From Microgenomates group bacterium (GTDB taxonomy: Bacteria > Patescibacteriota > Microgenomatia > UBA1406 > GWC2-37-13): a stretch of DNA of 64,000 nt. Below are positions 2,391-42,394 of the stretch, piece by piece; the first letter of the stretch is position 1, and the number at the start of each line of letters is the position of its first letter. Location of the stretch: the NCBI GenBank assembly GCA_049304035.1, contig JBAQNR010000007.1:4548-68547 (forward strand). Direction: 5' to 3'. A model generated the notes under the pieces. The model was not told the origin of the DNA. It did no database searches and saw only the letters and a program-made list of their open reading frames with translations. Both the position numbers and the translations under genes were made by a program.

Positions 2391-2618
2391 TCAACCTTCT
2401 CCTCGATTATAGTTTTCCAGCATATTTTCCAATTTGAGTACGGCTCTCAAATCGGCATTATAAGATTCTAATCCAATAACAAGAGCGTCACAAGCAAACC
2501 ATTCATCATTTTTATCATCCCAAATCGGAGCATTATCAAAACGAGCCATACAAGTATCATCTGCAACAGAAAATTTTCCAGTATCGTGATTATAAACAAC
2601 TACGAAATGTGATTCCAT
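2391..2618 (-). CDS. hypothetical protein (75 aa)
   Basis: track ORF; GGAGAATAA SD. Confidence 0.6.
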   Translation of the reverse strand: MESHFVVVYNHDTGKFSVADDTCMARFDNAPIWDDKNDEWFACDALVIGLESYNADLRAVLKLENMLENYNRGEG

Positions 2619-2621
2619 TTT

Positions 2622-3134
2622 TTATTCTCCTTTATAAATCAAATATTCAGGCAAAGTATAGCACATAAAATCACCATCTGTTCCAATTGAAACGCCCCAA
2701 GGCGCACATGGACTACATGGTGTTCCACGAGTTGTAAATTTACTCCACAATACAACAACATCATTTTGACTATCGATTTTCGCCGCGAATTCTCCTTCTT
2801 CATCTGGAATATACAATCCTTCATCATCTTTTTTCCAGTCACCAATTAGTTTTGTATGTTCAAAACAATCCCATTCGCCGTTTTCAATATCCTCAATTTC
2901 ATCCATCCAATCATCAATCATATCTGGGCTTGGATTTTCTTTACGCCCTTCAAGTTCGATTTGTTGTGAGATTAATTCCACCTCCTGCCCATTGCATTCA
3001 ATAATTTCCTCGCAATCTAAACAAATTTCTTCTCCCCCAGACAAATATTCATAATTTAACTTATTGAAAGATATGACTCCGGGACTGGGAATTTCTGAAT
3101 CAAGCCATTTTCCGTAATTATTTTTGACAGTCAT
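2622..3134 (-). CDS. hypothetical protein (170 aa)
   Basis: track ORF trimmed to ATG 3134 with AAAGGAGAA SD. Confidence 0.65.
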   Translation of the reverse strand: MTVKNNYGKWLDSEIPSPGVISFNKLNYEYLSGGEEICLDCEEIIECNGQEVELISQQIELEGRKENPSPDMIDDWMDEIEDIENGEWDCFEHTKLIGDWKKDDEGLYIPDEEGEFAAKIDSQNDVVVLWSKFTTRGTPCSPCAPWGVSIGTDGDFMCYTLPEYLIYKGE

Positions 3135-3136
3135 TT

Positions 3137-3553
3137 TTATTCTCCTTTGATATTGTTTTCTAAATCTCGAATATTTACACGACACATATAAATTTCTTCA
3201 TCGTCCCATTTGCCACGACATTTAAATTGAATATCCCCATCTTTTTCAACAAGCACAGTGTAACATTCCAGATATTCTTGTTCCTCTAATTCTTCGTTAA
3301 ACTCTCCGTCAACCCATTCAATTTCTTCTTGTAAATTATCCTCAATCCATTCGTTATAAGCAATCCAAATTCCACCGCCAAAATAATATTTTGCGCTGAT
3401 AAAATCCGCGTCATATATTGCGGAAACATCAGATATATGATGCTTCAACTCATTGATTACTTCTCGTGTGATTTCCAAAACAAAACGACTTGGGGAATAT
3501 TCCTCTCCCCTATCTTCATTATTATAATATGCCTTTGCGACTAAATATGTCAT
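3137..3553 (-). CDS. hypothetical acidic protein (138 aa)
   Basis: track ORF; GGAGAT SD. Confidence 0.65.
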   Translation of the reverse strand: MTYLVAKAYYNNEDRGEEYSPSRFVLEITREVINELKHHISDVSAIYDADFISAKYYFGGGIWIAYNEWIEDNLQEEIEWVDGEFNEELEEQEYLECYTVLVEKDGDIQFKCRGKWDDEEIYMCRVNIRDLENNIKGE

Positions 3554-3816
3554 TCAGAATCTCCTTTTGAACCATATTGTTCTTCCATCAATTTATTGAA
3601 AGCATCAAAAATCATTCCATAAATCATTCCGCTTTCAATTGTCATAACATCAATAAAATGTTCCAGCGCTTTCAAATGATTGGAACCGGTTGAAGAAGAT
3701 TTAATCCATCCAAAATCTTCGTCTAAACACTTCTTCATCTCTCTTTTTGCAATTTCCAAATTGGGCTCATGATATGCTTTCATAAAATCTTTGCGTACTT
3801 CACTTACGGTTTTCAT
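3550..3816 (-). CDS. hypothetical protein (88 aa)
   Basis: track ORF; GGAGAAAA SD; ATGA overlap with next gene. Confidence 0.65.
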   Translation of the reverse strand: MKTVSEVRKDFMKAYHEPNLEIAKREMKKCLDEDFGWIKSSSTGSNHLKALEHFIDVMTIESGMIYGMIFDAFNKLMEEQYGSKGDSE

Positions 3817-4021
3817 TTATTTTCTCCTTATATTCTTCGTATTCTGTCTCAGAGTACATCAGTTGATAAACCGGCGTACCAAAAGCATTTTCAAACCAGT
3901 GCCATATCTCATATTTATTTGTTCCTATTTCAAAATGAAGAAACCGTATCTCTATACATTCATCGTCGTCAATGGGAACATCACCAAGAACATTCCACAA
4001 ATCCTTCACAGTAAAAATCAT
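3800..4021 (-). CDS. hypothetical protein (73 aa)
   Basis: track ORF trimmed to ATG 4021 with AAAGGAGAA SD. Confidence 0.6.
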   Translation of the reverse strand: MIFTVKDLWNVLGDVPIDDDECIEIRFLHFEIGTNKYEIWHWFENAFGTPVYQLMYSETEYEEYKEKINENRK

Positions 4022-4022
4022 C

Positions 4023-4187
4023 TTATTCTCCTTTTTGTTTCCAGTGAACATATTCAAAATTTAAATTTATCCAAAAAATAGAAAATCCCGTATGTGAATT
4101 GTAGTTGTCTCCATAGTGATATAAATCAAGAAACTCTCTAACAATTTTGATAGTCAAAACCCATCTTCTTCCTTGAATAAGAACCAT
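4023..4187 (-). CDS. small hypothetical protein (54 aa)
   Basis: ATG 4187 with GGAGGAAAA SD; fills a gap; below track cutoff. Confidence 0.45.
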   Translation of the reverse strand: MVLIQGRRWVLTIKIVREFLDLYHYGDNYNSHTGFSIFWINLNFEYVHWKQKGE

Positions 4188-4229
4188 TTTTCCTCCAAAA
4201 ATGTGAATAAAATCTCAGTTTTATCAATA

Positions 4230-4505
4230 CTATTTCTCGAATGTCATTCCTTGATAGTTTGTCACGATTGTGTAAACATATGAAAAATCCTCAACAACCA
4301 TGATTTCAATTCCAGAATCTTTCAACATTTCTTCAATGTAATGTTGAACATCATCTCTACATTCTGAAAGCAAAGAAAATTCGAATCCACAATCCCTTTC
4401 TTCAGATAGATAATATTCAAACATAATGCGCCTTGTACGCATGTTAATCCTGATGCGTATGGGAGTTTCCACCTCGTCATATTCACAATCAATAATGAAG
4501 TCCAT
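4230..4505 (-). CDS. hypothetical protein (91 aa)
   Basis: track ORF trimmed to ATG 4505 with AAAGGAGAAAA SD. Confidence 0.6.
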   Translation of the reverse strand: MDFIIDCEYDEVETPIRIRINMRTRRIMFEYYLSEERDCGFEFSLLSECRDDVQHYIEEMLKDSGIEIMVVEDFSYVYTIVTNYQGMTFEK

Positions 4506-4530
4506 TTTATTTTTTCTCCTTTTTATGATT

Positions 4531-4588
4531 ATAATCTTACCACGAATATCCACAATCGTCAAATTGTGGATACATAAGAAGATTATAT
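4531..4588 (-). promoter_or_regulatory. PeSL-like class I: stem-loop with -35 in loop plus extended -10 promoter
   Basis: minus strand TTGACG (4562-4557), 17 nt, TGgTAAGAT (-10 at 4539-4534); 9-bp arms 4548-4556/4563-4571. Confidence 0.7.
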
Positions 4589-5586
4589 CAGTCTATCCAA
4601 AATGTGTGGCAATGGGGACAATGCGTTCCACATGGAAACTCATTCAGATAATACGTATTTCTGTGTCTCCGCATATCCATATCCATTGGAGTACACCCAC
4701 CTTTTTCAAATGTTTCCTTATATCTTTTTTCTCTTGCTAATTCTTCCGCATAAGATTCATTTACCTTTGCCTTTTTTGCTGACGTTTTCTTTTTTCTAAA
4801 AGAAATTCCCGTTCCATCACACCAGTTTGTGGACATTCCACAAACTTCATACGTGTATGAATACTTCACTTCCTTATCGATAAAAAAGTTCTTAATCTCA
4901 AACGGAATTGCAAACTTATGCCCAACCAACTGGCAATTGTCACCCGCCCCATTCCAAGTGTCAATAATTGCAATATTTGGATTTGTAAATTCAACAACAT
5001 TCTTATCAGACAAATGCATCATCTCATTAATGTCACCGGTAAAATAAATCACCAATCTTCCGTTGTCACCTTGACGAATCATCATGTCAATGTCATTATC
5101 CCATTTTGTTTCTTTCAGCGGGATTTTTAATGCTTTCTTGATTTGTTTGCACATTTTATCAACTTCGTCTTGGTCTGATAAGCATCCGTCATAAAATTCT
5201 TCGCCAGTATCATAAAACATTACAATATCCCTTGTGTTTCTGATTAAATCTTTTATTGGGTCGGACTCGTCCCTATCCATAATAACATCCCGAAGATTTT
5301 CCCAGTGTTCTTCCATTAACTCTTCCGCTTCTTCTTCGGTTATGTCGAATTCTTTTTCAATTTCGTCCTTCAATTCTTTTGCAATAAAATCTAAACTATC
5401 GCATTGACATTCCCAAAACCAATCATCGCAATTTTGGTCAATATGACACCAGTCTTGTGTTCTTATTGCTTCCGCGACACTTTCCAGACTATCATCTAAA
5501 TTGCTTCGATAATCAACATAAATCAAATCATAAGACTTATTCAACAATTTTTCAATATCTTCGTAAGTAATTTCCTTAGTTTCCAT
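4588..5586 (-). CDS. hypothetical protein (332 aa), C-terminal CxxC/HCxHC cluster
   Basis: track ORF trimmed to ATG 5586 with AAAGGAGAT SD; no family recognised. Confidence 0.7.
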   Translation of the reverse strand: METKEITYEDIEKLLNKSYDLIYVDYRSNLDDSLESVAEAIRTQDWCHIDQNCDDWFWECQCDSLDFIAKELKDEIEKEFDITEEEAEELMEEHWENLRDVIMDRDESDPIKDLIRNTRDIVMFYDTGEEFYDGCLSDQDEVDKMCKQIKKALKIPLKETKWDNDIDMMIRQGDNGRLVIYFTGDINEMMHLSDKNVVEFTNPNIAIIDTWNGAGDNCQLVGHKFAIPFEIKNFFIDKEVKYSYTYEVCGMSTNWCDGTGISFRKKKTSAKKAKVNESYAEELAREKRYKETFEKGGCTPMDMDMRRHRNTYYLNEFPCGTHCPHCHTFWID

Positions 5587-11442: not shown

Positions 11443-11631
11443 CTATTCCTTTAACCATTTTCCAGAAATCAATTCTTCAAATTTTTCTTCGCACCGCAAA
11501 TGCAAGCGATATGCCCTTGGAAAATTAATAAATTTTTGCAACCAATTTCCCTCATATAAAAGTTTGTGAACCTCCAATTGCATATTCTCCAATTCCTTGA
11601 ATTTTTTGTCGATTTCCTCTGCGTCCGTCAT
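11443..11631 (-). CDS. hypothetical protein (62 aa)
   Basis: track ORF; AAAGGAGAAAA SD. Confidence 0.6.
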   Translation of the reverse strand: MTDAEEIDKKFKELENMQLEVHKLLYEGNWLQKFINFPRAYRLHLRCEEKFEELISGKWLKE

Positions 11632-11652
11632 ATTTTCTCCTTTTGTTTAATT

Positions 11653-11717
11653 ATATAATAATCTTACCATAAAAGCCAATAACCGTCAAGTTATTGGCTC
11701 ATAAGCAGATTATACTA
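11653..11717 (-). promoter_or_regulatory. PeSL-like class I: stem-loop with -35 in loop plus extended -10 promoter
   Basis: minus strand TTGACG (11689-11684), 17 nt, TGgTAAGAT (-10 at 11666-11661); 10-bp arms 11674-11683/11690-11699, followed by TTTTA on the minus strand. Confidence 0.7.
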
Positions 11718-21125: not shown

Positions 21126-21470
21126 TGTTTTCAGATTTACAACGGTTCTATCTTCATCCCCAATAAAACACGTTCCTTCTTCTTCCCAATATTCAGGAAG
21201 ATTCCCTTCAACATTTAAAGCGAATTCAATTTCTTTTTCGTTTTCATCATCGTAACAAATCGCAATTTCCCCATATCTTCCAAAATCATGAGATTGCCAA
21301 TGGATTTTAAAATAACAACTCAAATCATCTGAAATTGGAAACAATTTTTCCAAATAGGATTTATAGCGATTTAATTCCTGACGCATAGCGGGAATATAAT
21401 CCTCATTTGGATTTACTTGCACACAGTCTTCTCCGCAGGGGGTACAACCCAATTCAAAAGAATCTCTCAT
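21123..21470 (-). CDS. hypothetical protein (115 aa)
   Basis: track ORF; GGAGAAAAATA SD. Confidence 0.65.
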   Translation of the reverse strand: MRDSFELGCTPCGEDCVQVNPNEDYIPAMRQELNRYKSYLEKLFPISDDLSCYFKIHWQSHDFGRYGEIAICYDDENEKEIEFALNVEGNLPEYWEEEGTCFIGDEDRTVVNLKT

Positions 21471-21712
21471 TATTTTTCTCCAAGAATTTCATCAATCAAA
21501 TTAACATTGTTGTTGGTGTCAAATCCAAACAAAACGTTCTCCACTTGAACCAAGGCAACCATTCTTTCACGATTCTTTTCTTTTTCGGCTTTTCCTATTT
21601 CCATCTTGAGAAATTCCACGGTGTTTAGGTAATTTTTCTCCATTCTTTCTTCTTCATTGAGAAATTTGCTTTTTAATTCCTTGAATTTAAGAACGTCACC
21701 GACCGTTATCAT
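21470..21712 (-). CDS. hypothetical coiled-coil protein (80 aa)
   Basis: track ORF; AAGGAGAAAAATC SD. Confidence 0.6.
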   Translation of the reverse strand: MITVGDVLKFKELKSKFLNEEERMEKNYLNTVEFLKMEIGKAEKEKNRERMVALVQVENVLFGFDTNNNVNLIDEILGEK

Positions 21713-21723
21713 GATTTTTCTCC

Positions 21724-21891
21724 TTAGAAAACTAATTCAACTTCATCCCAAGTGAAATATCCTACGCCAACCTTGAGTTCCACTTTAATAACTTCCTGCT
21801 CCAAAAAAAGACGAGCGGGAAAAGTTTCCACAATTGTTCCAATTTGCCCATGATTATAACATTCTTTCAAGATTTTTACTTTTTGTAACAT
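21724..21891 (-). CDS. small hypothetical protein (55 aa)
   Basis: track ORF trimmed to ATG 21891 with AAAGGAGAAAA SD. Confidence 0.5.
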   Translation of the reverse strand: MLQKVKILKECYNHGQIGTIVETFPARLFLEQEVIKVELKVGVGYFTWDEVELVF

Positions 21892-22343
21892 TATTTTTCT
21901 CCTTTCAATATATTCCTGATTTTCAACAATCTTGAACAAAATTCTCGTTGAGTTAAAACAGTGTGGCTTTCATCATTTTTTCCCATAGAATGAGTCAATG
22001 ACGAATTTCCAGTTGCCAGCAAAGCATTTTTGAAACTTGAATTTTTTGACAATTCAAAAAATGCCCTGTCTAACAAATCCTGATAATCTTGTGAATGACG
22101 ATTGATTTCTTTTCCCTGCCAAAATAATGTTTGAGTCTTCCACCATTTTTTTGGCTTTCCCTTAAATTTTGCTTGCTTTCCTACTAAAGTGCAAACAAAT
22201 TTTTGCATTTCCACATCCTTAAATTTCAAGGATTGCAGAAATCCTTCCATGGAATTGCATGGAATTCCGTCAATAATGAACGGATGCGGCGCAAAATTTG
22301 AGAGACTCGAAGCAGGAAAACCATTTCCGCTTCCAATATCCAT
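21891..22343 (-). CDS. NADAR (YbiA/DUF1768)-like protein, candidate ADP-ribose-processing enzyme
   Basis: LSNFAPHPFIIDGIPCNSMEGFLQSLKF ... ALLATGNSSLTHS parallels E. coli YbiA FSNFAAWPIKVDGKTWPTSEHYFQAQKF ... LLATAPAKLVEHT (from memory); trimmed to ATG 22343. Confidence 0.6.
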   Translation of the reverse strand: MDIGSGNGFPASSLSNFAPHPFIIDGIPCNSMEGFLQSLKFKDVEMQKFVCTLVGKQAKFKGKPKKWWKTQTLFWQGKEINRHSQDYQDLLDRAFFELSKNSSFKNALLATGNSSLTHSMGKNDESHTVLTQREFCSRLLKIRNILKGEK

Positions 22344-22354
22344 TTTTTTCTCCT

Positions 22355-22425
22355 TTTGGTTATATTTTGACTTATAAATATCCACAAACGAATTTGCGAA
22401 TATTTATAAATCCCCCTGAATAAAA
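22355..22425 (-). promoter_or_regulatory. class III element: GGGGGAT plus 17-bp AT-rich stem-loop plus AGTCAAAAT
   Basis: arms 22372-22388/22393-22409 with two non-WC positions, both G.U on minus RNA; atccccc at 22410-22416. Confidence 0.55.
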
Positions 22426-22662
22426 CTATATATTAAGAAATCTAAAGATTAATTCCGCGTCCCATTTTTCAACCTCTATTGTTAAATCCTTGGTTGTCTT
22501 TTCACAGGCATCGCAGAAAAGATAATGGGAATTCGTTGATAAAACTTCATCCCATAAATGTTTTCCATCACAGCAATTTCTTTTTTTCCAATATTCTAAT
22601 TCTTTTTCCGTCCACTCCCTTTCTCCATCTATTTGGTAACTTTTTCCGAGATAAGAGTCCAT
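22426..22662 (-). CDS. hypothetical Cys-containing protein (78 aa)
   Basis: track ORF trimmed to ATG 22662 with GGAGGAAAA SD. Confidence 0.6.
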   Translation of the reverse strand: MDSYLGKSYQIDGEREWTEKELEYWKKRNCCDGKHLWDEVLSTNSHYLFCDACEKTTKDLTIEVEKWDAELIFRFLNI

Positions 22663-22676
22663 TTTTCCTCCAAGTG

Positions 22677-22700
22677 TTGATAAAACGAAGATTTTATACA
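22677..22700. repeat. AT-palindrome family copy
   Basis: ttgataaaacgaagattttataca. Confidence 0.6.
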
Positions 22701-22869
22701 GAATATGCACTATGCCAAATCATTTTCGCAAAAGAAATTTTCCTCGGAAAATTTGGGTCATCATAAAATTCCTCGGAAAAGGTTACGAATGGAAGTTGTG
22801 AAAACCAAGGGGTTTCATGTCCAATTGAAATCGAAAAATTTCTTTCCTTGAACTTGAATTTTATCTCCA
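22693..22869 (-). CDS. small hypothetical protein (58 aa)
   Basis: ATG 22869 with AAGGAAAAAAC SD-like; below track cutoff. Confidence 0.4.
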
Positions 22870-22882
22870 TAATGTTTTTTCC

Positions 22883-23050
22883 TTATGCGTCAATCGATTC
22901 GATTTCACAGTTTTCCCTGCGGATTAATTCCCTTTCAATTTCCCGTAGGTTATACGGAATATATGACAATGAGATTCTGTCATCATCGTAGCACAAAATT
23001 TCCTCCATCCATTTTACCAGTTGTTTTTTATCTTCCAGTTCTAATTCCAT
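22883..23050 (-). CDS. small hypothetical protein (55 aa)
   Basis: ATG 23050 with GGAGAAATAAAA SD; below track cutoff. Confidence 0.45.
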   Translation of the reverse strand: MELELEDKKQLVKWMEEILCYDDDRISLSYIPYNLREIERELIRRENCEIESIDA

Positions 23051-23052
23051 TT

Positions 23053-23199
23053 TTATTTCTCCTTTTCAATTTCTGATATTTCCACAGTTATCCTGTGGAT
23101 TTTTCCCATATATTTAAAAGTGATAACATTACCTTCAATATTGGGACGCGCAAAACGAAATATATCCCTGATTCTCGACAGTATCATAATTATGTCCAT
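23053..23199 (-). CDS. small hypothetical protein (48 aa)
   Basis: track ORF trimmed to ATG 23199 with AGGAGAAGAT SD. Confidence 0.45.
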   Translation of the reverse strand: MDIIMILSRIRDIFRFARPNIEGNVITFKYMGKIHRITVEISEIEKEK

Positions 23200-26292: not shown

Positions 26293-26325
26293 TTTATATT
26301 CTCCTGTTTTTTATTAGAATTAGAA

Positions 26326-26387
26326 TCACTTATAGATTCTCATAGATATTTTATTTTTATAAACTACCTATGAGAGTCTATAAGTGA
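26326..26387. promoter_or_regulatory. 20-bp inverted repeat upstream of the first leftward gene (operator/control hairpin candidate)
   Basis: tcacttatagattctcatag (26326-26345) / ctatgagagtctataagtga (26368-26387), 1 mismatch, 22-nt AT loop. Confidence 0.5.
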
Positions 26388-26446
26388 CATATAACACCTT
26401 GTACTATTATTGCAGTGTTATCTTATAAACTCTCGTGAATAATACA

Positions 26447-26474
26447 TTGACTATATACGATAACTTTTTATAAT
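26447..26474 (+). promoter_or_regulatory. sigma70-type promoter (plus strand)
   Basis: TTGACT (26447-26452), 16 nt, TATAAT (26469-26474). Confidence 0.5.
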
Positions 26475-26766
26475 ACCCGTATAAACTTCTTTCAGGCGTC
26501 CACTTTGAATTATCTATTTTTATATGTAACGGGATTTATTTATTCGATGTTATGTGCGCCGAATAATTCCTATACATCAATAGTTTATTCAAGAACCTTA
26601 CTCGTTATTTATTTTCTTTTTATTGGGAAGTTTGAAACGTATACAGAAAATTGTATTATATATGTGATTTTATTTTTATCTGGTATAAACACGGATTATT
26701 ATATAAAATCTAATTTTTAGGATAATACTAGAAAATATTAATCTTTTTTTGTTATCCACGTTATTT

Positions 26767-26810
26767 GTTAATAAAAGAATACCCCACCCGTTATAACGGG
26801 TGGGGTATTC
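26767..26810 (-). terminator. strong rho-independent terminator (minus strand; possibly bidirectional)
   Basis: perfect 14-bp GC-containing stem 26777-26790/26797-26810, followed by UUUUAUU on the minus strand; 24 nt after stop of 26834-27241. Confidence 0.8.
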
Positions 26811-26833
26811 TGTTTCACTTCTTGCGGGTTGTG

Positions 26834-27241
26834 CTACTTGCTCTGTTTCGCAACCTTGCTCGCTTGTAAGGCTGTTGCGCGTGCGTGAGTTTCACGAATG
26901 GCTTGACGTTCGGCCAGCTTTTGGGCAATTTTCTTGTCACGTGATTCACGTACAAGAACACTTGCCAGTTGATTGAAATTAACTTTCTTTACGCTGTTAA
27001 TGCGTTTCTGGAGTGTTTCAAGACCGTTAACAATCATGCGGGCGTAAATTTGACCTTGCGCGAATTCGAGAGTATTCTCTTTCGCATCGCTGAAAGAAAG
27101 ATAACCCGCGACATTGACACGCACTTCTTTCACTTTGCGAGTGAAGATTGTATCATTTCGGCCTTTCTCACTTGCGCTTGCAATGAGTGATTCAATCTTC
27201 GCATTTACTTCACTTTCATTCAATACTAAATTCTGTTTCAT
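26834..27241 (-). CDS. orphan hypothetical protein (135 aa) with basic Ala/Lys/Gln-rich C-terminal tail
   Basis: track ORF trimmed to ATG 27241 (AAAGGATAA SD); visibly GC-richer than its very AT-rich surroundings; own terminator. Confidence 0.65.
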   Translation of the reverse strand: MKQNLVLNESEVNAKIESLIASASEKGRNDTIFTRKVKEVRVNVAGYLSFSDAKENTLEFAQGQIYARMIVNGLETLQKRINSVKKVNFNQLASVLVRESRDKKIAQKLAERQAIRETHARATALQASKVAKQSK

Positions 27242-27454
27242 GTCTATTATCCTTTGCTTATATCCGTTTGTGTCATTGACACATACTATAATGCGGATAT
27301 TCGCTTTAACACAGAGAATTAACATTCTCTGATATTATCCTAAAAATTATGTTTTGGCTATTCCGTTTTATCAGATATGTCTTGCATCCGTTGAATCGCC
27401 TATGTGAGACAATATTATCATGTAAAGCGTTGATCAAACGTACCAGTTGCCACA

Positions 27455-27472
27455 CCTTACAATATTGTAAGG
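27455..27472. promoter_or_regulatory. perfect 18-bp palindrome (operator-like)
   Basis: ccttacaatattgtaagg. Confidence 0.5.
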
Positions 27473-27566
27473 TAGTACATTTATTAAGGTAGGGCTATTG
27501 ACATATTATATTTTATGCCGGTGTATATTGTACTAATTGTATCATGCTGCGCTGCGTTTATATATG

Positions 27567-27654
27567 TTTATTTAGGTTAGACTAAATTATTATTTAGCTT
27601 ATACTTATTATTTATTTAGTCTATGCTTATTGTTTATTTAGTTATATATAACTA
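27567..27654. repeat. four tandem 22-bp iterons (TTTATTTAG-N13), replication-origin candidate
   Basis: (T/A)TTATTTAG cores at 27567, 27589, 27611, 27633: exact 22-bp phasing. Confidence 0.65.
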
Positions 27655-27820
27655 GTTAACAACAAAATAAAATCTAAAATTATAAACCTGTGCAAAACAT
27701 AGACAAAATAAATCATAACATATTAGAATTGTCAATGGGCAAAATATAAATTTATAAATTGATACTTGACAGATATATAATACTATGGTGATACCGGTAT
27801 AGTCATATAACTATATAGAT

Positions 27821-27841
27821 ATACTAATAAATTATTAGTAT
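27821..27841. repeat. perfect 21-bp palindrome
   Basis: atactaataa-a-ttattagtat. Confidence 0.5.
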
Positions 27842-27897
27842 AGTTTACATACTAGTAGTAAGTTGATAGTAGCCAGGTGCCTATAGTTACTCAACTC

Positions 27898-27933
27898 ACA
27901 CATAATAAAATAACAAAACACATAATAAAATAA
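27898..27933. repeat. 16-bp direct repeat x2
   Basis: acacataataaaataa at 27898-27913 and 27918-27933. Confidence 0.6.
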
Positions 27934-28210
27934 ACTCAAAAAATACTAAAAATAATCATATAGACTATATATGAACCAAGAAGATTACCAATAGAAACTG
28001 CCAACACTTTGCCAATAGTTTTACATAATCAGAGAATACATATCCGAATATACATACTCCGTCAGAATATCGAAGTACCTATATGTAGACCAATAATATC
28101 CGAATAGAATTAATTGCCAATACAAAAAATAAAACCTAACACAAACAAAAAAATATTTTACAACCATGCTCAACACATAAACAAGATAAGCATTGTCGTA
28201 ATTGACCAGT

Positions 28211-28240
28211 AAAAATAAAAAGAGGTCGAATACGAACCTC
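28211..28240 (-). terminator. rho-independent terminator (minus strand)
   Basis: GAGGUU...GACCUC stem (28222-28240, G.U only on minus RNA), followed by UUUUUAUUUUU. Confidence 0.55.
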
Positions 28241-28667
28241 AAAAATAAAATAAACAATATAGACTATATCAATATAAAACTTGTGATAAATCTGAATAAT
28301 ATCAAAAAAGTCATATTACCGTATAAACAATAGGATAACAGTTTACATTCGGCATATTTGATAAATCCATGGATTTGCAGGTATAAATTTAAGTGTTCTG
28401 GCTCCGCCATGTTTCATACCTTTAATGGAAGGTTATTTTGGTTTTTTCCAGTATGACTAAATTTTGCATTGTTTTCCACAACACTATGAAAACTCTTTAT
28501 CTGGGGCAAATTTGAACTTCAATTTTCAACGTATAATGTAAACATGGGGAAATCATTGTACAGCAACATAAACTCAACCTTGAGGCTCCTGTTGACTTTC
28601 AATGGAACAACTAGGACTTACAAGGTATTATTACGGAGGAGATAAACTTTGTCCTATTTATATTAAC

Positions 28668-28699
28668 AAAAAAAGACACCTCGATTTGAGATGTCTTTT
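28668..28699 (-). terminator. rho-independent terminator of the helicase operon (minus strand)
   Basis: 11-bp stem 28672-28682/28688-28698 (G.U on minus RNA), followed by UUUUUUUG; about 125 nt after the helicase stop. Confidence 0.65.
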
Positions 28700-28824
28700 A
28701 AGGGGTGGAGCAAGTTGTCTAGATGCGTTATACTCGACATTTATCAATAGTATATATATAATAATATAGTTAACTTATGACAGATGTCGAAAATAACGCA
28801 GATGTGTTCCTTCGCGTATTCTGA

Positions 28825-30282
28825 CTATTTTGTATTCGGACTATCCTTATCCACAATCATCCACCACCTCTTATGTCTATCTTCACCTTTCGTTTCCTGT
28901 TCGGATATGAGTTCCAGGGGTATTCCGTCTTCGGCTATGATTGAGTTGATACTGTTGATTCCTCTATTCCTGTAGTTTGTATTCTTGGGGGAGAATATGA
29001 GATAAAAGAACTTGTCCTTGAATGTTTCCTGCTCACTCTTGAACATCTTGATGTTCTTCTTGGATAGCAGGAACTCCGCCAGTCCTATGATTTCAAACTG
29101 TTTGTCGGCGTTCTCTTCGTCATCCTCCCATTTGGCTTGAAAGTATTCCACCAGATACTTCTTGTACCCATTGTATTCTTTCATGACCTTTTCAAGAAAA
29201 TCAACCTGATAGGAATAGTTATAGTATTTTGCTTTGTTGATGTTGAAGTCATTGTCCACAATATCATCGAACATTGCCTTTCTATGTTTCTGCTGGAACT
29301 CCTCTTCCCCGAACTGTTCCCTTTCTTCAGCAATATCCAGTTTCATCTTAAGGCTCCCCAGATGATAGTTCAACTCTCTGTTGTGGTGGTTCTTAACAAA
29401 CACCCTTATCTTATCATTCTCGTTCAGGATGCGTTTTCTACCTAACGCTTGAATAAGAGTAATCGGATTGATAAAGTCCAATATGATTGTTTTTACCGAT
29501 TCGTCACAGATGGATATTCCATTTTCCATAACCTTTGTGGTGCAGAGTATTCTTGCAGAAAAGTATTGATTCTCAATGATTTCCTTTTCTGTATTCTGGT
29601 CGGAATATTTATAGAACTCCTTATTGGATTCTGCACAAATAAAAACCGCATCATCGAAACTCTGAGATAGCGCCAACGCCTCTGCCGCACTCGAAGAAAA
29701 ATATATTGCTTTTTCCTCATGTTCCAGGTTTTGTAGGATTGCTTCTGGCGTCCTGTCTTTATAGTAAAACGACAGGGATGAGATATAAGAATAATCCTTT
29801 TCTGCTGTATAGATAAAATCAAACTTGTTTCCAGCGAATAGGGACATCTCTGGTGTAGCTGAAATAAAAACAAATATCTTGTTGGGATAGTCTGTTTCGA
29901 ATATGTCCAGCAGCAGGTCTGTATTCCTATTGAAATCAGAGTCGGCATAGATATAGTGGAACTCATCACATACAATTGCATCAAACTTTGAAAATAAATA
30001 CTGGAGGTCTTCCCTTGTCTCAAGTATTCCATTCTCAATAGACTGGTAATTTCTTACAGTGATGAAATCAGCCTTTTCACGGATGTCTTCTATGATTTGA
30101 TTTTTTAACAGCGTCCTATTTGAAAGAATAAGAATTCTCTTGTTGTTTCTTAAGCACCATTCATACAGAGTATTCTTCGTCCAGTAACTTTTGCCGGTTC
30201 CCGTTTGAGCAGAGATAAGAACCTTCTTTCCTATCCAACTATCAATCTCGCCTATTGGAATTATGTCTGATATATATTTCAT
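28825..30282 (-). CDS. SF2 DEAD/DEAH-box-type helicase
   Basis: Walker A AQTGTGKSYW, DExH box VCDEFHY, FISATP, motif VI QALGRKRI; start set to ATG 30282 (ATGA coupling with the upstream gene). Confidence 0.8.
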   Translation of the reverse strand: MKYISDIIPIGEIDSWIGKKVLISAQTGTGKSYWTKNTLYEWCLRNNKRILILSNRTLLKNQIIEDIREKADFITVRNYQSIENGILETREDLQYLFSKFDAIVCDEFHYIYADSDFNRNTDLLLDIFETDYPNKIFVFISATPEMSLFAGNKFDFIYTAEKDYSYISSLSFYYKDRTPEAILQNLEHEEKAIYFSSSAAEALALSQSFDDAVFICAESNKEFYKYSDQNTEKEIIENQYFSARILCTTKVMENGISICDESVKTIILDFINPITLIQALGRKRILNENDKIRVFVKNHHNRELNYHLGSLKMKLDIAEEREQFGEEEFQQKHRKAMFDDIVDNDFNINKAKYYNYSYQVDFLEKVMKEYNGYKKYLVEYFQAKWEDDEENADKQFEIIGLAEFLLSKKNIKMFKSEQETFKDKFFYLIFSPKNTNYRNRGINSINSIIAEDGIPLELISEQETKGEDRHKRWWMIVDKDSPNTK

Positions 30283-30611
30283 TCTTTGGTTATACCCCAA
30301 GTCCAATCTTCTTTTGTTTGAAATGTGTGCAAAATTATTTTATATGGTAAATTTCTTTCTTTCAAAAATCTTTCGACAACAGCAATGCTATAACCAGAAA
30401 AATCAAATCTTTTTCCTGTAACAAACTGCTCGGAAATCAATTTCACAAATTCGCCAAGTTCTTCTTTGGTGTGAGTATATCCATATTCCATGGAACACTC
30501 CCACATATCTAAGACATCGATAATCCTACTTTGTTCCAGATGCTTAAGTTCATCTATGTCCAGTTTGACATCATACTTTCTATCCAGCATCTTACCATTC
30601 TTTTTATACAT
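30279..30611 (-). CDS. hypothetical protein (110 aa), first gene of the helicase operon
   Basis: track ORF; CAGGAGGAATAA SD. Confidence 0.65.
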   Translation of the reverse strand: MYKKNGKMLDRKYDVKLDIDELKHLEQSRIIDVLDMWECSMEYGYTHTKEELGEFVKLISEQFVTGKRFDFSGYSIAVVERFLKERNLPYKIILHTFQTKEDWTWGITKE

Positions 30612-30636
30612 TTTTTTATTCCTCCTGTCTCCATGT

Positions 30637-30713
30637 GAAAATAAAAGCGGCTCAGGTCGATGCGGAGATTTACACCATTCATCTTACTGTACGGGCAAAA
30701 CTATCCCGAGCCA
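30637..30713 (-). promoter_or_regulatory. structured GC-richer leader ending in a U-tract (attenuator or small RNA candidate)
   Basis: 8-bp long-range stem 30705-30712/30649-30656 (G.U on minus RNA) encloses about 48 nt, followed by GCUUUUAUUUUC, then the SD of 30611 gene; begins at the predicted TSS of the 30720-30748 promoter. Confidence 0.4.
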
Positions 30714-30719
30714 CTTTGA

Positions 30720-30748
30720 ATTATATCATACTATTCTTTTTAAGTCAA
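30720..30748 (-). promoter_or_regulatory. consensus extended -10 promoter (minus strand)
   Basis: TTGACT (30748-30743), 17 nt incl. TGa, TATAAT (30725-30720). Confidence 0.75.
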
Positions 30749-30791
30749 TACCATATAAGACCCAAATAGTCCAAATTACGATATATGGGGC

Positions 30792-30820
30792 TTGACAAAT
30801 AATATATTTAATGATATAAT
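30792..30820 (+). promoter_or_regulatory. consensus extended -10 promoter (plus strand)
   Basis: TTGACA (30792-30797), 17 nt incl. TGa, TATAAT (30815-30820). Confidence 0.75.
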
Positions 30821-30853
30821 ATGGCAATATTTAATAAAAAGGAGCAACCATGG

Positions 30854-33616: not shown

Positions 33617-36256
33617 TTGCGGAAACTACAGCAGTTTTATATCATGTCGTTGCAATCTGCAAGAATCAAGAAGGTTGGAAAAATAGTTTCAACACTTCAA
33701 GATGCGAGAAAAAATAACGAGATTATTTCTGCGGGCGACTCCCAGTTATTTCGGACGTTGAGAAAGGTGTCTAATCACCCCTATGAGGAATCCGAACTGT
33801 TGCGGTTGTGGAATGAAAGAACAAGATTAAAGAAAAAGAAAAACAAAAAAGAGAACGTAAGCAGGATGTCCGAACTTACCTCAAAGATTGACGAGATGTT
33901 ATTTGTTCCAGAGATTGTTTCCATAACCTTCAATCACGTTGCACACTACAAGCAATTTGTGAAAGAGGGCGTGTGGATAAATGGAACAAAATTTGTCCGA
34001 TTTATGGGTAGTGCGGGGCAATTGAGGCGTTCAACCGTCCTTTTTATTCAAGAACAATATTTGGAAAAGGTAAGAGAGATTATCGAGAACGGGTTCAATA
34101 AAGAGGTTCCAGTAAATTTTGGGAAGTTCAATGCGTACTACTCGCTGGTTTCAAGCAGTAGTATTCCTGTCTCGACGCCCAACTACGTTGTCATTCCAGA
34201 TTTGGAAGAAACAAGAGATACTGAGGTTGACTTTGTTGAAGACGACAATGAAACAGTAAACAGAAAAGTTCTTCCCATCGTTCACAATCTTTTTGATGGT
34301 GCTGGAATTATCTCCATGGATTTTGCAAAGCAATGGAGTTTCGATTTAGGATTGGATTATGATGCGTGTTCTTTTATTTTCAGGGCTCCTTGGTGCAAGG
34401 GTCTGTTGACTTCGTTTCCTTTTAGGACACTTGCTGCTGAACTCGGAGTTTCAGAGATTACCGATATTTATGGGGATGTTCACCAGATAGACAACGTTGA
34501 TGTTGTTATGACAAAATCCCAGTTTAAACTGAGTGAGGGGTATTCTTCTATTGCTGAACACAAAACAAACTCCCTAGAGAACAATCTATCTTGGAACGTT
34601 ACAAGAGTCAATCCGAATAAAGACAAAAAATCTTTTATGAGTTCCTACCAGTATATTCAGGTTCTCAAGGATGACGTAGATATAGAAAAACTATGCCGAC
34701 CAACATTGGACTACTTCAATGATGTGTCAATTTTGGACGGAGAAAAAGCGCTAATCTATTTGATGGGTTCTGATATAGAAGACGACTTGAAGTTCAACAA
34801 AATAGAAAATCCGATAGTGAAAGCGCTGTGTTTGAACAAAGATGTGATTCAAGACCCCCACATTAGAAAATCGATTATAAAAAGTCTCAACAGAAAGATA
34901 CGAGATAGTTACTTCGGAAAACTCCTGATAAGCCCAGGAAATTATCAGTTTGTTTTGTTTGACCCCTATGCGATAGCGCAACACGCCTTCGGGTTCGAGG
35001 CAACTGGTCTTTTGGGTGCAGGAGAGCATTATTCACAATACTGGAATAACATGGGCTCAAATCAGGTTGTTGCAGGCAGAAGTCCTTTGACATGGCGCTC
35101 AGAGATGTTGAGGTTGGACTTCAAGAACAACCAGAAGATGGAGAAATATTTTGGGCATCTGTATAGTGGAATAGTGTTTAATGTTCATTCGCCAGATATG
35201 ATGTGCCTTGCGGACGGAGATGGGGACGGAGACGCAGTATTCACATCCGATAATGACGAATTGTTGAAGAACTGTTATGGCGGGGTTCCTGTGACATACA
35301 ACAGAAAGGCGACAACAAAGAATAAAATTTCATACGATGAGTTGTCGGTTTTTGATGCAATGAGTTTTAATTCAAAGATTGGTCTGGTAACGAACAACAG
35401 TAGCACATACTATTCCATGTTGTCTTTATTTCCAGAAGATTCCAAAGAACACCAACTAATTCTAAAGAGACTTGTTATTTGCAGAAAGCAACAGGGAATG
35501 GAAATCGATAAAACAAAAGGTCTTCTTATCGACAGACTCCCAGAATGGAATAAGAAATCAGACGACCCAGTTCACAACAACATCCTGACAAATCGAAGAC
35601 CAATGTGGATGAACTGGCTCTACCCCCATAGAAAGAAAGATTACGACTCCTATAATGAAATGTACGATGTTTATTGCTACGCCAAATACGGGTTCGGTAT
35701 AGACTTTTTATTGAAGAAGGAAGTCGTCACAGAAGAGCAATCAAAAATTATAGAAAGACATAGGAAGTTTTGTCCAGTGGTTGTTGGTTCAACCTCTATA
35801 ATGCAGAGGATTTCAGATTACATGGTTTCAGAGGTAAAAGAACTTAAGGTGTCGGTAAACAACAAAGAATTTGACTATTCGGTATATTTCGATAAATCGG
35901 TTGGTCTAAACGAATCTATTCGTGAACCGCTAAGAGACTTGATGAAATTATATAATAAGTTGAAAAAGAACCTGTTCTTCTCTCCAGACGGAGAAAAATC
36001 GGAAATCGTAGAGTTCATAAAGAACAAGGCTTTTGAAATAAGTTCAGACTTGTCCGAATTGACCAATATGGCTCTGGATATAAACTATGGAACGGGATAC
36101 TCTCAGTCATTCGTGTGGGAAATATTTTCCGATGGAATATTGGACGCCATGAAAAAGAAAACCAGGACTTTTGATTTTCCTGTCCCAAAGGAAAACGGAA
36201 GGATTTCGTTTGCCGGAAGAAGGTTCAACATGGTAAAAGGTGGTGTCGATGAGTAA
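33617..36256 (+). CDS. YonO/RdRP-like two-barrel single-subunit RNA polymerase
   Basis: FIFRAPWCKGLL (compare FQIRxxGxKGvv of DPBB1 in cellular RdRPs) and VVAGRSPLTWRSE...IVFNVHSPDMMCLADGDGDGDAVFTS (compare RxPxxxxGD...DxDGD catalytic loop, related to beta-prime NADFDGD); AGGAGG SD 10 nt before TTG 33617. Confidence 0.7.
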   Translation: MRKLQQFYIMSLQSARIKKVGKIVSTLQDARKNNEIISAGDSQLFRTLRKVSNHPYEESELLRLWNERTRLKKKKNKKENVSRMSELTSKIDEMLFVPEIVSITFNHVAHYKQFVKEGVWINGTKFVRFMGSAGQLRRSTVLFIQEQYLEKVREIIENGFNKEVPVNFGKFNAYYSLVSSSSIPVSTPNYVVIPDLEETRDTEVDFVEDDNETVNRKVLPIVHNLFDGAGIISMDFAKQWSFDLGLDYDACSFIFRAPWCKGLLTSFPFRTLAAELGVSEITDIYGDVHQIDNVDVVMTKSQFKLSEGYSSIAEHKTNSLENNLSWNVTRVNPNKDKKSFMSSYQYIQVLKDDVDIEKLCRPTLDYFNDVSILDGEKALIYLMGSDIEDDLKFNKIENPIVKALCLNKDVIQDPHIRKSIIKSLNRKIRDSYFGKLLISPGNYQFVLFDPYAIAQHAFGFEATGLLGAGEHYSQYWNNMGSNQVVAGRSPLTWRSEMLRLDFKNNQKMEKYFGHLYSGIVFNVHSPDMMCLADGDGDGDAVFTSDNDELLKNCYGGVPVTYNRKATTKNKISYDELSVFDAMSFNSKIGLVTNNSSTYYSMLSLFPEDSKEHQLILKRLVICRKQQGMEIDKTKGLLIDRLPEWNKKSDDPVHNNILTNRRPMWMNWLYPHRKKDYDSYNEMYDVYCYAKYGFGIDFLLKKEVVTEEQSKIIERHRKFCPVVVGSTSIMQRISDYMVSEVKELKVSVNNKEFDYSVYFDKSVGLNESIREPLRDLMKLYNKLKKNLFFSPDGEKSEIVEFIKNKAFEISSDLSELTNMALDINYGTGYSQSFVWEIFSDGILDAMKKKTRTFDFPVPKENGRISFAGRRFNMVKGGVDE

Positions 36257-37058: not shown

Positions 37059-37418
37059 GTGGTAAATAAAAAGAAAAGTGAGAAGGAATTTCTCGACACG
37101 GATAGTTTTGTAACCGTCTTGGCTCAGAAAGCGGGGTTTACAAAAGGAGACATAAAGGTTGTAATAAACACCTTTAAAGATATTTTAGAAGAGTGCGTAA
37201 AAAACGACATTGATGTTGACCTGAAGGGACTCTTCCATATGAGCGTGATTGATATTGAATATACAAAACCACCCGGAATTGTCGCATTTAAGGGCGGAAC
37301 GGATTTCAATAGGAACGCGAAAAGGGTCAAGTTTGTGACACCCTTAAATCTACGCGATATTGCGAAGGCAAGTTCGGAGAAACAAAACAATGAATCTTCT
37401 AACCGAGAGGTTGTGTGA
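37059..37418 (+). CDS. HU/IHF-family DNA-binding protein
   Basis: FVTVLAQKAGFTKGDIKVVINTFKDILEECV...VDLKGLF...RVKFVTPLNLRD matches the HU fold pattern; GTG start with AAAGGAGA SD. Confidence 0.65.
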   Translation: MVNKKKSEKEFLDTDSFVTVLAQKAGFTKGDIKVVINTFKDILEECVKNDIDVDLKGLFHMSVIDIEYTKPPGIVAFKGGTDFNRNAKRVKFVTPLNLRDIAKASSEKQNNESSNREVV

Positions 37419-39581: not shown

Positions 39582-40586
39582 ATGTCAGGAAAAAGCAGAA
39601 GAATTAGTTCAACACTGTCAGTTGGTGTTGGAGATAAACTTTCAGAAGAGCATGGATACTGTCGCAAATGTACGACAATAAAAAAGGGGGTTGATTTTTA
39701 TGCGGCTACGGATAAATTTTTAGATACGAATGGAAAGTTTTCTGTATGTAAAGCATGTGTGTCTGATATTTTTGTTGGATTTTTAAACAGCGAAAGAGAT
39801 GTAAAGAAAGCGATGTTTTTAACTTGTAAGACTTTGAATATTATGTATTCAGAATCTCATCTTGAAGCCGCAATATCTCAACTATCCACAAAGATGGGCT
39901 CCGAAGCGAATATTGATTATTCTAAGTTATTTGGTATATATAAGACCAAATTAGTCACAATTACATCTGCTTCTGGGGATGGTTCAGTTGGAACATTTGA
40001 ATACAATCCCGGTTTAACATTTAATCAGGAAGATGAACAGATTATATCTGACAATGAAGGTGAGGATTTTGCTAATTATTTAAAGAAGACCTGGGGTTCT
40101 GGACTCAGTATTGATGACTATGATTTCTTGGAAAGCACACTTGCGGAATGGCAGTCTACGCACAACTGCAATACAACCACAGAACTTCACCTTATGAAAC
40201 TTATTTGCCATGCCGAATTAGATATTCGCAAAGCAAGAGAGACCGGTGGTGATACAAAATCCATGGTGAAGGCGCTTCAGGATTTAATCAAAACAAGCAA
40301 TCTGTCTCCTGCCCAATCAAGTATGAGTTCCATGAACAAATCACAAGAGGCGCTCGGGGTTAGACTTAAGGAAATTGAAGAACTCGAGCCGTTAGAATGG
40401 TTGGAAAAACATAAGAACCCATTCGAAGACGTTGATAATCTATCACAATATCTTGATGATTTTATAGCAAGACCAATTAGAAATCTTATTACCGGTTCTC
40501 GTGATTTTAATATTAAATCGGTTGATGAAGACGGAAGATTTGACATAGAGATTAGGGAGCCGGAGGACGAGGGGGATATTTTATGA
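39582..40586 (+). CDS. putative terminase small subunit (334 aa, N-terminal Cys4 element)
   Basis: position immediately upstream of and ATGA-coupled to the large terminase; CRKC...CKAC; no family motif recognised. Confidence 0.4.
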   Translation: MSGKSRRISSTLSVGVGDKLSEEHGYCRKCTTIKKGVDFYAATDKFLDTNGKFSVCKACVSDIFVGFLNSERDVKKAMFLTCKTLNIMYSESHLEAAISQLSTKMGSEANIDYSKLFGIYKTKLVTITSASGDGSVGTFEYNPGLTFNQEDEQIISDNEGEDFANYLKKTWGSGLSIDDYDFLESTLAEWQSTHNCNTTTELHLMKLICHAELDIRKARETGGDTKSMVKALQDLIKTSNLSPAQSSMSSMNKSQEALGVRLKEIEELEPLEWLEKHKNPFEDVDNLSQYLDDFIARPIRNLITGSRDFNIKSVDEDGRFDIEIREPEDEGDIL

Positions 40587-42394
40587 GCATTCAACCCGGC
40601 GCGATAACTTCTCAGCAGAGAAATAACGAGAGAAGACAAAACCCTCTTCTTAGACCAAAATTCATGGTCAAATCAAAAGAAGTAACAGAAGAGAAAAGAA
40701 AAAGACTTATAAGATGGGCTATATTCTATAGAAGAAACACCCATAGATTTGTTGAGCACTATCTTGGAATAAAACTTTACCCATATCAAAAACTTTGGAT
40801 TTATATGATGGGAATAAAGGACTCTATGGTTTCTGTTGCAGCACGTTCTTCCGCAAAGACATGGCTTATTGGTGTGTATGCAGTTGCAAGATGCATCCTT
40901 TATCCAAACAGTAGCGTTGTCATTGTGAGTTCTACTTTGGCTCAAGCGGCAATTATTCTATCCGAAAAGATACGGGGGCTAATAAATGACTATCCCGCAG
41001 TTGCAAGAGAAATAGAATCCATTACGGTAGGTCAAAACAAGAACGAGGCAATATTCTATAATGGTTCAACCATTAGGGTTTGTGCCAGTAGAGACTCTGC
41101 TCGCGGGGCACGTGCAACTTTTATTATTGTGGAAGAGTCGAGACTTGTAAATCTTGATATTCTTAACAGTGTTATTAGACCGTTCGCGTTTGTTAGACCA
41201 ACGCCATATTCAAAACTAAAAAAATACTCATACCTTCCTCCAGAAGAACCAAAAGAGATGCATATTACATCTGCACATTATTCATCTGGTTGGTGGTATA
41301 AAGAAATGCTTGTTGCAATCAAAAACATGCTTCAAGGGAAAAATGTTGGATTCTTCGCAACGGACTATCTTACCGCAATTTTTCATAAAATAAAGACAAA
41401 GGCGGTAATTGAAAAAGATAGGGAAGTCATGGATGAAATAACTTTTCAACATGAGTATCTGAATTTGAGTTCTGGAGAGTCTAGCTCAAGTTATTTCAAG
41501 AACAAAATGTTTCAAAAAAATAGAAGTATGAAAAAATCATTTTATCCTCTGAGACCAGAAGAATACGCGAATAAAAATCAAAAGTCTTCTCTTCCTAAAA
41601 AAGAGGGTGAAATCAGGGTGGTTAGTGTTGATATTGCTACACGCGCAGGAAAGCAAAACGATAATTCTATTTTATCTTGCTTTAGATTATTTCCTACTAC
41701 AAAGGGATATGAAAAAGAAGTTCCTTATATGGAATCTCATTCTGGCTCAAACACTGGCATTCAGGCTCTTAGGGTAAAACAATTGTTCTATGAGTTCGAA
41801 GCAGATTACATTGTACTCGATGTGGCCAACGCGGGAATTTCCGTGTATGATTCTCTCACGAGTATTACTCATGATTTAGAAAAGGGAATTGAGTATCCTG
41901 CGATGACATGTATGATTCATCCGTCAATATCAGAAAAAATGTACGACGACCTAAAGAACAGAACGATTGGATTGAACGCTCTACCTGTTATTTATCCTAT
42001 TTATGGTTCATCTCAATTGAACTCTGACATTGCGGTTCAGATGAGAAACTCCCTCCAGAGAAAAACAATAACATTTCTCGTGGGAGAAAATGATGCAGAA
42101 GACTATCTTTCTAAGAATATCAAAGGATATTTGGACGCGGAGGATAGTGAGACAAGAGCCAACGCCCTTTCACCATTTGTTGAAACGGGTTTATTTGTAT
42201 ATGAATCAATAAATCTATCTATGACCATAGTTTCGGGGCTTATCAAATTATCGGAACCACCCGGAAATAGAAAAGATAGGTATACTTCGGTTTCATATGG
42301 AAACTACTTTATTTCCATATTGGAACAGGATTTATTAAAAGAATCTGAGCCAAACGATTTGGAAGATTGGCTGAATTCAACAGTTACTTGTTAA
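40583..42394 (+). CDS. terminase large subunit
   Basis: 603 aa; Walker A-like AARSSAKTW, Walker B FIIVEES, C-terminal RNaseH-like VVSVDIATRAG; position before the head genes. Confidence 0.7.
   Translation: MSIQPGAITSQQRNNERRQNPLLRPKFMVKSKEVTEEKRKRLIRWAIFYRRNTHRFVEHYLGIKLYPYQKLWIYMMGIKDSMVSVAARSSAKTWLIGVYAVARCILYPNSSVVIVSSTLAQAAIILSEKIRGLINDYPAVAREIESITVGQNKNEAIFYNGSTIRVCASRDSARGARATFIIVEESRLVNLDILNSVIRPFAFVRPTPYSKLKKYSYLPPEEPKEMHITSAHYSSGWWYKEMLVAIKNMLQGKNVGFFATDYLTAIFHKIKTKAVIEKDREVMDEITFQHEYLNLSSGESSSSYFKNKMFQKNRSMKKSFYPLRPEEYANKNQKSSLPKKEGEIRVVSVDIATRAGKQNDNSILSCFRLFPTTKGYEKEVPYMESHSGSNTGIQALRVKQLFYEFEADYIVLDVANAGISVYDSLTSITHDLEKGIEYPAMTCMIHPSISEKMYDDLKNRTIGLNALPVIYPIYGSSQLNSDIAVQMRNSLQRKTITFLVGENDAEDYLSKNIKGYLDAEDSETRANALSPFVETGLFVYESINLSMTIVSGLIKLSEPPGNRKDRYTSVSYGNYFISILEQDLLKESEPNDLEDWLNSTVTC

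Follow-up and report, generated by a model that had tools for sequence, protein, structure and literature searches.

The stretch of DNA analysed here (the window, 64 kb) is part of a contig of ~131 kb, about 67 kb of which lies outside it, and judged by its gene content it is a large phage that is distantly related to SPbeta. It encodes a single-chain RNA polymerase of the YonO type (33617-36256; Pfam RdRP), which shows 26-32% identity to its counterparts in the Bacillus phages BUCT082 and SPbeta and the Clostridium phage c-st. A large terminase gene is found at 40583-42394, and the structural proteins match the YonD, YonB, YomX, YomW, YomV and YomU families. A gene at about 37060-37390 appears by eye to be HU/IHF-like, and the order of polymerase and HU gene is that of yonO and yonN in SPbeta. 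Some 2-4 kb past the right edge of the window (L037 12689-14376), a GIY-YIG gene and a gene for a 331-aa protein with a Phage_integrase domain follow the tail genes; the latter could be an integrase or an MrpR-like repressor with a recombinase fold.

According to a strand-restricted ORF heuristic, genes lie on the minus strand from 1 to 30611 and on the plus strand from 30821 onward. ORFs of at least 150 aa agree with this division, except for two overlapping longer opposite-strand ORFs, and all called genes point away from the 26-31 kb region. Reading leftward on the minus strand from the point of divergence, the order is a 110-aa gene, an SF2 helicase gene, a terminator, a gene-free stretch, a 135-aa gene and a run of small genes. 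The gene-free stretch, at a distance of 3.2 kb from where the late operon begins, contains a short array of direct repeats, which is the subject of this analysis. The features of the locus are as follows.

26776-26811, bidirectional: terminator, a G+C-rich hairpin with a 16-bp stem and T runs on both sides, between the 135-aa ORFan gene and the leftward operon of small genes
26834-27241, minus strand: gene for a 135-aa protein, with a Shine-Dalgarno sequence and a strong bidirectional terminator
27326-28824, no strand: gene-free stretch of 1.5 kb downstream of the helicase gene, the largest intergenic gap in the window
27567-27654, plus strand: array of four 22-bp direct repeat units, starting at 27567, 27589, 27611 and 27633
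27585-27758, no strand: least stable duplex of the 64 kb and candidate unwinding element (G+C 14-18%; nearest-neighbour free-energy scan)
27695-27718, minus strand: fifth copy of the unit, inverted (24-nt arms, 88% complementary, 66 nt apart)
27884-27901, minus strand: 18-mer GTGTGAGTTGAGTAACTA, identical in the nearest relative (L002 12575-12592)
27985-28123, minus strand: CTATTGGCAA-type repeats at 27985-27994, 28009-28018 and 28114-28123
28671-28699, minus strand: intrinsic terminator that ends the helicase operon (12-bp stem, then a T run)
28825-30282, minus strand: SF2 helicase gene, 485 aa (Pfam DEAD and ResIII; PHROG 16)
30720-30820, both strands: back-to-back divergent promoters with extended -10 TG

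An earlier note on this DNA had placed the array within a non-coding divergence region of ~2.5 kb, about 1.2 kb from the SF2 helicase. The distance is right (1171 bp, from 27654 to 28825), but the supposed non-coding block holds the 135-aa gene, so that only 27326-28824 is truly gene-free, and the strand-divergence point of the genome is 30611-30821, not the array region. The promoter pair at this point matches TTGACA-17-TATAAT at 12 of 12 positions on the plus strand and 11 of 12 on the minus strand, which implies, as far as such matches can tell, that the host uses promoters of the sigma-A/sigma-70 type. The cumulative GC skew has its minimum near 31 kb, declining up to that point and climbing beyond it. 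The skew inflection that the earlier note had proposed to look for at the array is thus found at the strand switch instead, with its minimum 3.4 kb away from the repeats at 27.6 kb. The turn coincides with the switch in gene strand and is therefore inseparable from transcription-linked bias; GC skew neither supports nor excludes an origin within 26-31 kb.

Each of the four units of the array opens with a (T/A)TTATTTAG core, as previously described: TTTATTTAG at 27567, 27611 and 27633, and ATTATTTAG at 27589. The start-to-start distances are 22, 22 and 22 bp with no indels, a spacing that had been equated with two helical turns and that does come near to two, the actual value being about 2.1. 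The relationship extends over the whole 22-bp unit (consensus TTTATTTAG-NYTATRCTTATTR), with pairwise identities of 13-17 out of 22 positions. Tandem Repeats Finder reports 27567-27646 with a period of 22, 3.7 copies and a score of 81, the maximum for the window being 82. The longest exactly phased run of a 9-mer, with one mismatch allowed, was determined in 200 dinucleotide-preserving shuffles of 26300-28824; it comprised two copies in 199 of these and three copies in the remaining one, and none gave four phased copies. The motif WTTATTTAG occurs six times in the 64 kb, where 3.6 occurrences are expected, and four of the six fall within the array; the two copies elsewhere represent the chance level.

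The core is far better preserved than the spacer. Across the four units, 51 of 54 pairwise positions are identical in the 9-bp core (94%), compared with 37 of 78 in the 13-bp spacer (47%), where ~30% would be expected from composition. The clustering of invariant columns in the core is marginal in a column-permutation test (p = 0.054). With this limit, retention of the core, divergence of the spacers and the exact phase together form the pattern of a site under selection and not that of a recent product of slippage. The inverted fifth copy lies to the right of the array, and its reverse complement, TTATGATTTATTTTGTCTATGTTT, matches 27605-27628 at 21 of 24 positions. Because of this copy the minus-strand RNA fold of 27555-27730 has a z-score of -2.4. 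Taking these properties together with the comparison with other phages given below, we regard the array as real, phased and lineage-specific, and as a predicted target of protein binding.

The gene-free stretch around the array contains no credible ORF between 27326 and 28824. No Rfam family matched this stretch at gathering thresholds, and relaxing the limit to E values of up to 1 brought up hairpin-type noise alone; a tRNA search found none. The lowest-stability windows of the whole 64 kb lie here, at 27585-27684 for windows of 100 bp and 27559-27758 for windows of 200 bp. From the final two or three units of the array, the minimum reaches across the A+T-rich spacer to their right as far as the inverted copy. 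In nearly every genome the lowest duplex stability is found in A+T-rich non-coding DNA, and the minimum is for this reason weak evidence by itself. The A/T skew switches at the array, from T-rich on the left to A-rich between 27650 and 28350, a local flip that is explained by the repeated A-rich motifs. No AA/TT phasing of 10.5-11 bp or 22 bp, of the kind associated with curvature and helically phased A-tracts, could be detected in the region. DnaA boxes with up to one mismatch number 45 in the window, among them those at 26752, 28472, 28847 and 29252; at this threshold none is located inside or beside the array and the boxes are not clustered.

Promoter-like sites overlap or flank the array on both strands (minus 27706-27679; plus 27578-27605 and 27700-27729), and the minus-strand site reads TTGTCT-16-TATAAT, a match at 10 of 12 positions. 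Between 26000 and 31000 there are 35 such sites, compared with 26.4 +/- 4.3 in shuffled sequence (~2 sd above). A late (YonO) promoter at the array was considered and rejected, synteny with SPbeta placing it after the polymerase and HU genes, at 37-38 kb. Two palindromes were noted in the surroundings. One, at 28724-28800, lies between the helicase stop codon and the terminator and consists of 28-nt arms with mirror-image promoter-like hexamers, of which the plus-strand copy would drive an RNA antisense to the 3' end of the helicase gene. The other, at 26326-26387, is near-perfect (29-nt arms, 90% complementary, 4-nt loop), immediately precedes the opening gene of the long leftward operon, and could be an operator or an RNA hairpin.

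The genes on either side differ in character. The SF2 helicase is a conserved neighbour of the gene-free stretch. Its AlphaFold2 model (pLDDT 92) resembles most closely the folds of DEAD-box RNA helicases and flavivirus NS3, and no sequence match was found in the PDB. The possibility that it is a specialised origin or replicative helicase was rejected on the basis of this modelled fold, which appears to be that of a generic DEAD-box/NS3-like SF2 protein; because the fold is generic, proximity of the helicase says little in favour of an origin. The 135-aa protein is a coiled-coil-like ORFan that matches only itself and giant coiled-coil proteins in searches of 5.8 billion and 1.8 billion proteins, gives no convincing match in PDB or Pfam and is not conserved in the relatives; for these reasons we discarded it as a candidate for the array-binding protein. 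Its gene has a G+C content of ~44%, compared with 33% around it, and together with the terminator it is bracketed by 38-nt inverted repeats (26705-26742 and 27318-27355, 84% complementary). From these sequence features it looks like an inserted cassette.

Relatives of the locus were sought in several collections. A megablast of the region against phage records gave no match, neither the helicase nor the 135-aa protein had a relative in scans of IMG/VR, and a scan of GTDB genomes with a helicase alignment was negative too. Many metagenomic homologues of the helicase are available, the nearest being 58% identical. Eight relatives were compared (L002, L003, L006, L007, L010, L012, L030 and L033, the last a Clostridium tetani plasmid). 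Downstream of the helicase gene, all eight have a gap of about 1-1.9 kb without genes; among the 100-bp windows of each locus (10-21 kb), the one of lowest stability lies in this gap in six of the eight. Conservation of the repeats in related phages had been suggested as a check; the TTTATTTAG motif is absent from all eight relatives, although the closest is only 58% identical in its helicase. A search of IMG/VR for three copies in 22-bp phase returned unrelated arrays without similarity, mostly of 11-bp period, from giant viruses and other phages, and these were set aside.

Other sets of repeats occur in the gap of several relatives, although a clear array is not present in every one. For example, repeats of 75 bp and 93 bp occur in L002 together with TTATTTTAAT motifs, a 20-bp array is found in L006, and L003 contains copies of ATTGCCAA, five of them as a direct array with 19-29 bp spacing. 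The CTATTGGCAA-type (TTGGCAA) repeats are common to the three closest phages, namely the window, L002 (11969-12114) and L003 (10705-10950). The window has a further degenerate copy at about 27999, L002 has three copies, and L003 has five within one mismatch, or up to seven in a looser search with ATATTGCCAA. The five copies in L003 are in the opposite orientation relative to the helicase, which suggests an internal inversion of part of the gene-free stretch. When the TTGGCAA repeat pair was searched for in IMG/VR, none of the 16 matches was next to a relative of the helicase, and they were dismissed as chance or coding matches. The 18-mer GTGTGAGTTGAGTAACTA is unique in the window, 0.03 matches being expected at up to three mismatches, and the non-coding DNA around it is otherwise ~60% identical to L002; no match to it was found in IMG/VR or in JGI metagenome contigs. 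On comparison of these sequences, the position and general character of the gap are kept, its content is partly kept among close relatives, and the 22-bp array is lineage-specific.

Two further observations concern individual relatives. The DNA at 21243-23064 of the window, including a T4 gp30.3-like gene, is 92-95% identical to L002 16033-17696, compared with 58% identity for the helicase protein, which in terms of sequence similarity indicates a recent mosaic exchange between the two phages. In L003, an 18/36-bp tandem repeat (GTGAGCAGGTC...) at 11495-11661 runs up to the end of the contig; the assembly probably broke because of this repeat, which is probably part of a repetitive coding region.

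The function of the array is not assignable from its sequence alone, and an origin of replication is the single best guess, to be held tentatively. The proposal of the earlier note, that the array is an iteron-type replication origin, is plausible for a candidate, while falling well short of being probable. The array, its phase, its core, the adjoining stability minimum and the conserved gap all agree with it; the lack of a recognisable initiator, the absence of the motif from all relatives, the lack of a DnaA cluster, a skew turn that lies elsewhere and the generic nature of the helicase count against it or lend it no support. The defining parts of iteron origins are the iterons, a DNA unwinding element (DUE), DnaA boxes and a Rep protein (PMC4980987). 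A minimum of three helically phased direct repeats, each of about 17-22 bp, is expected of such an origin, and the array has four at exactly 22 bp; a candidate A+T-rich unwinding element adjoins it, with the weakness as evidence pointed out above, while DnaA boxes with up to one mismatch are missing from the site. With respect to a cognate initiator of the Rep or O type (winged-helix) encoded in cis, the remark that none is recognisable was borne out: families of Rep and initiator proteins, ParA/B and integrases are not represented among the 90 ORFs between 1 and 37853, most of which have no family assignment.

Among known systems, the iteron origins with theta replication (pPS10 oriV, R6K gamma ori, RK2 oriV and P1 oriR) and lambda ori resemble the array in having direct repeats beside A+T-rich DNA. 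In the familiar layouts of the pPS10, R6K and lambda origins, the iterons of pPS10 oriV are four in number, contiguous and 22 bp long, next to an A+T-rich segment, and lambda ori combines four iterons with an A+T-rich region. The operators of plasmid rep genes are accompanied by a further, inverted copy of the repeat nearby, and so is the array. In contrast to these origins, there is no adjacent or recognisable gene for a Rep or O-type initiator, the core is only 9 bp long, the DnaA boxes are unclustered, no replication gene contains or adjoins the array, and the neighbouring helicase is a generic SF2 enzyme.

If the array acts as an origin, the four phased repeats and the inverted copy would be the binding sites of a candidate sequence-specific protein of the phage lineage. 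With a spacing of about two turns, the bound proteins would be aligned along almost the same side of the helix, where they could oligomerise and strain the adjacent, very A+T-rich 100 bp; this DNA would then melt and the replication machinery would load. The element would thus be an origin composed of iterons and an unwinding element, and its location would be the gene-free, conserved and cis-acting stretch that follows the helicase gene in an SPbeta-like phage. We infer all three of the steps involved, namely binding of a protein, melting of the flank upon binding and the start of replication at the array. Differences in the repeats between lineages are to be expected if the sites co-evolve with a specificity protein, and genes that run away from the 26-31 kb region would suit bidirectional replication from this neighbourhood. 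An origin accounts for the link with the stability minimum and for gene orientation, and has many precedents in phages and plasmids; we rank it first among the readings considered, as a possibility and not as an expectation, since a gene switch, a packaging site or a plasmid-partition site agrees with the evidence almost equally well. By analogy, the other functions carried by the gap in relatives (parMRC and a pac site, discussed below) weigh against a simple origin.

A less probable explanation, although one to be taken seriously, is that the repeats form an operator or regulatory array, at which a phage repressor or activator binds cooperatively, controls promoters in the gene-free stretch and gates early leftward transcription. 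The promoter-like sites that flank and overlap the array fit such a role, since a transcript from minus 27706-27679 would cross it, and the array precedes the next gene to be transcribed, that for the 135-aa protein, by 326-413 bp. The excess of promoter-like sites over shuffled sequence is nevertheless only about 2 sd, the array is far from any start codon, and no HTH or RHH regulator is recognisable nearby. A precedent is provided by MrpR, the master repressor of SPbeta, whose target is a repeated element present in promoter regions, that of yonP among them; the Phage_integrase-domain protein just beyond the window could be MrpR-like. The element (SPBRE) is 15 bp in length and is scattered over about ten promoters (PMC10516654). 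SPBRE and the array are alike in being repeated intergenic elements of an SPbeta-type phage that are bound by a phage-specific protein, with the difference that binding to the array is only predicted. Furthermore, SPBRE is present as single copies over about 10 promoters, whereas the array motif is confined to one tandem array and is not dispersed to other promoters: in the 64 kb, four of its six copies are in the array and the other two are at chance level.

A packaging site (pac) is rather unlikely. In this case the small terminase subunit would bind the phased repeats and direct the first cut of headful packaging. A precedent comes from SPbeta-like phages, whose genome opening point and pac site are located in a gene-free gap of 950 bp between yonP and yonR, next to the yonO late operon (bioRxiv 10.1101/2021.11.22.469490, PMC8270828). 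Like the stretch that holds the array, the SPbeta gap is large, gene-free and close to the YonO late operon, and short repeats (TATCGTAA, read by eye) are found in it as well. It is, unlike the present stretch, the divergence point itself; here the two-gene helicase operon intervenes between gap and late operon, and there is no sequence similarity between the two non-coding regions. The genome of phage Perkons has its physical ends, marked by direct terminal repeats, in the interval from the RNA polymerase operon to the helicase gene. The gap is also where a number of independently assembled relatives stop, but these stops are at non-homologous positions and other assemblies continue across them, so that contig ends were rejected as genome ends. 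In addition, the large terminase gene is 13 kb distant from the array and no small terminase was identified.

Next in rank, and improbable, is the reading of the repeats as a parC- or tubC-type centromere for partition in a plasmid-prophage state, in which a small protein would coat the repeats and couple the DNA to a filament-forming motor. The C. tetani plasmid provides a precedent. This circular replicon of 139 kb (NZ_AP026813.1) carries the helicase homologue followed by a gap of 970 bp, in which about five TTACACATTAATTAAACTA-like repeats immediately precede a gene for ParM/StbA and another for a 97-aa protein. By its sequence and arrangement this is a parMRC partition locus, so that parC-like repeats and parM occupy the equivalent position after the helicase. 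A degenerate GIY-YIG-like remnant is visible by eye between the parC-like repeats and ParM/StbA (within 2481-4815). Single-locus tandem direct repeats, like those of the array, are typical of parC (pSK41, R1 and the C. perfringens plasmids) and of tubC (pBtoxis and phage c-st), and parC of pSK41 consists of four 20-bp repeats. Centromeres of types II and III are in general tandem direct repeats at one locus, upstream of their operon (PMC5016525); the first of these properties is found here, and no integrase was found in the first 38 kb. The second, which is a defining feature, is not: no par operon adjoins the array, and the next gene is the 135-aa ORFan, 326 bp away. Pfam searches of the 90 ORFs between 1 and 37853, and a tblastn of the window with ParM and ParR of C. 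tetani, detected no ParM, ParR, ParA or TubZ. The Phage_integrase-domain gene just outside the window could, moreover, mean that the phage integrates.

It is more doubtful still that the array is a neutral tandem duplication, produced by replication slippage in a fast-evolving A+T-rich spacer and without a function of its own: the array is lineage-specific, the non-coding regions of relatives are full of assorted short repeats and the column-clustering test is marginal, but spacers near chance identity beside a well-kept core, an exact phase that has survived this divergence without indels, and the presence of an inverted fifth copy all speak against it.

A broader proposal extends the origin reading and is highly speculative. 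The gene-free stretch behind the helicase gene would be a conserved, modular "cis-acting hub" of the phages and phage-plasmids that encode a YonO polymerase, in which the phased array, particular to each lineage, may be the specificity determinant for initiation of replication. The TTGGCAA repeats and the 18-mer may then be common sites for loading of the machinery, possibly read by the conserved C-terminal domain of the helicase. If this were true, it would represent a type of origin that lacks an initiator and is driven by an SF2 helicase, which is not known to have been described for bacterial viruses and would be loosely analogous to the UL9 system of herpesviruses.

According to a review, replication of SPbeta "has not yet been investigated" (PMC8270828), and no origin is known for SPbeta or its relatives. 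Whichever role it has, the array is well-formed but ordinary-looking, an element of a familiar sort in a group of phages that has been little studied. If the array or the stretch around it were shown to be an origin, a centromere or a pac site, it would be a first handle on the cis-acting biology of a large group, the phages and phage-plasmids with a YonO polymerase, and would offer a compact element for the construction of vectors. Its main value would lie in opening up how SPbeta-like phages replicate, are maintained and package their DNA.
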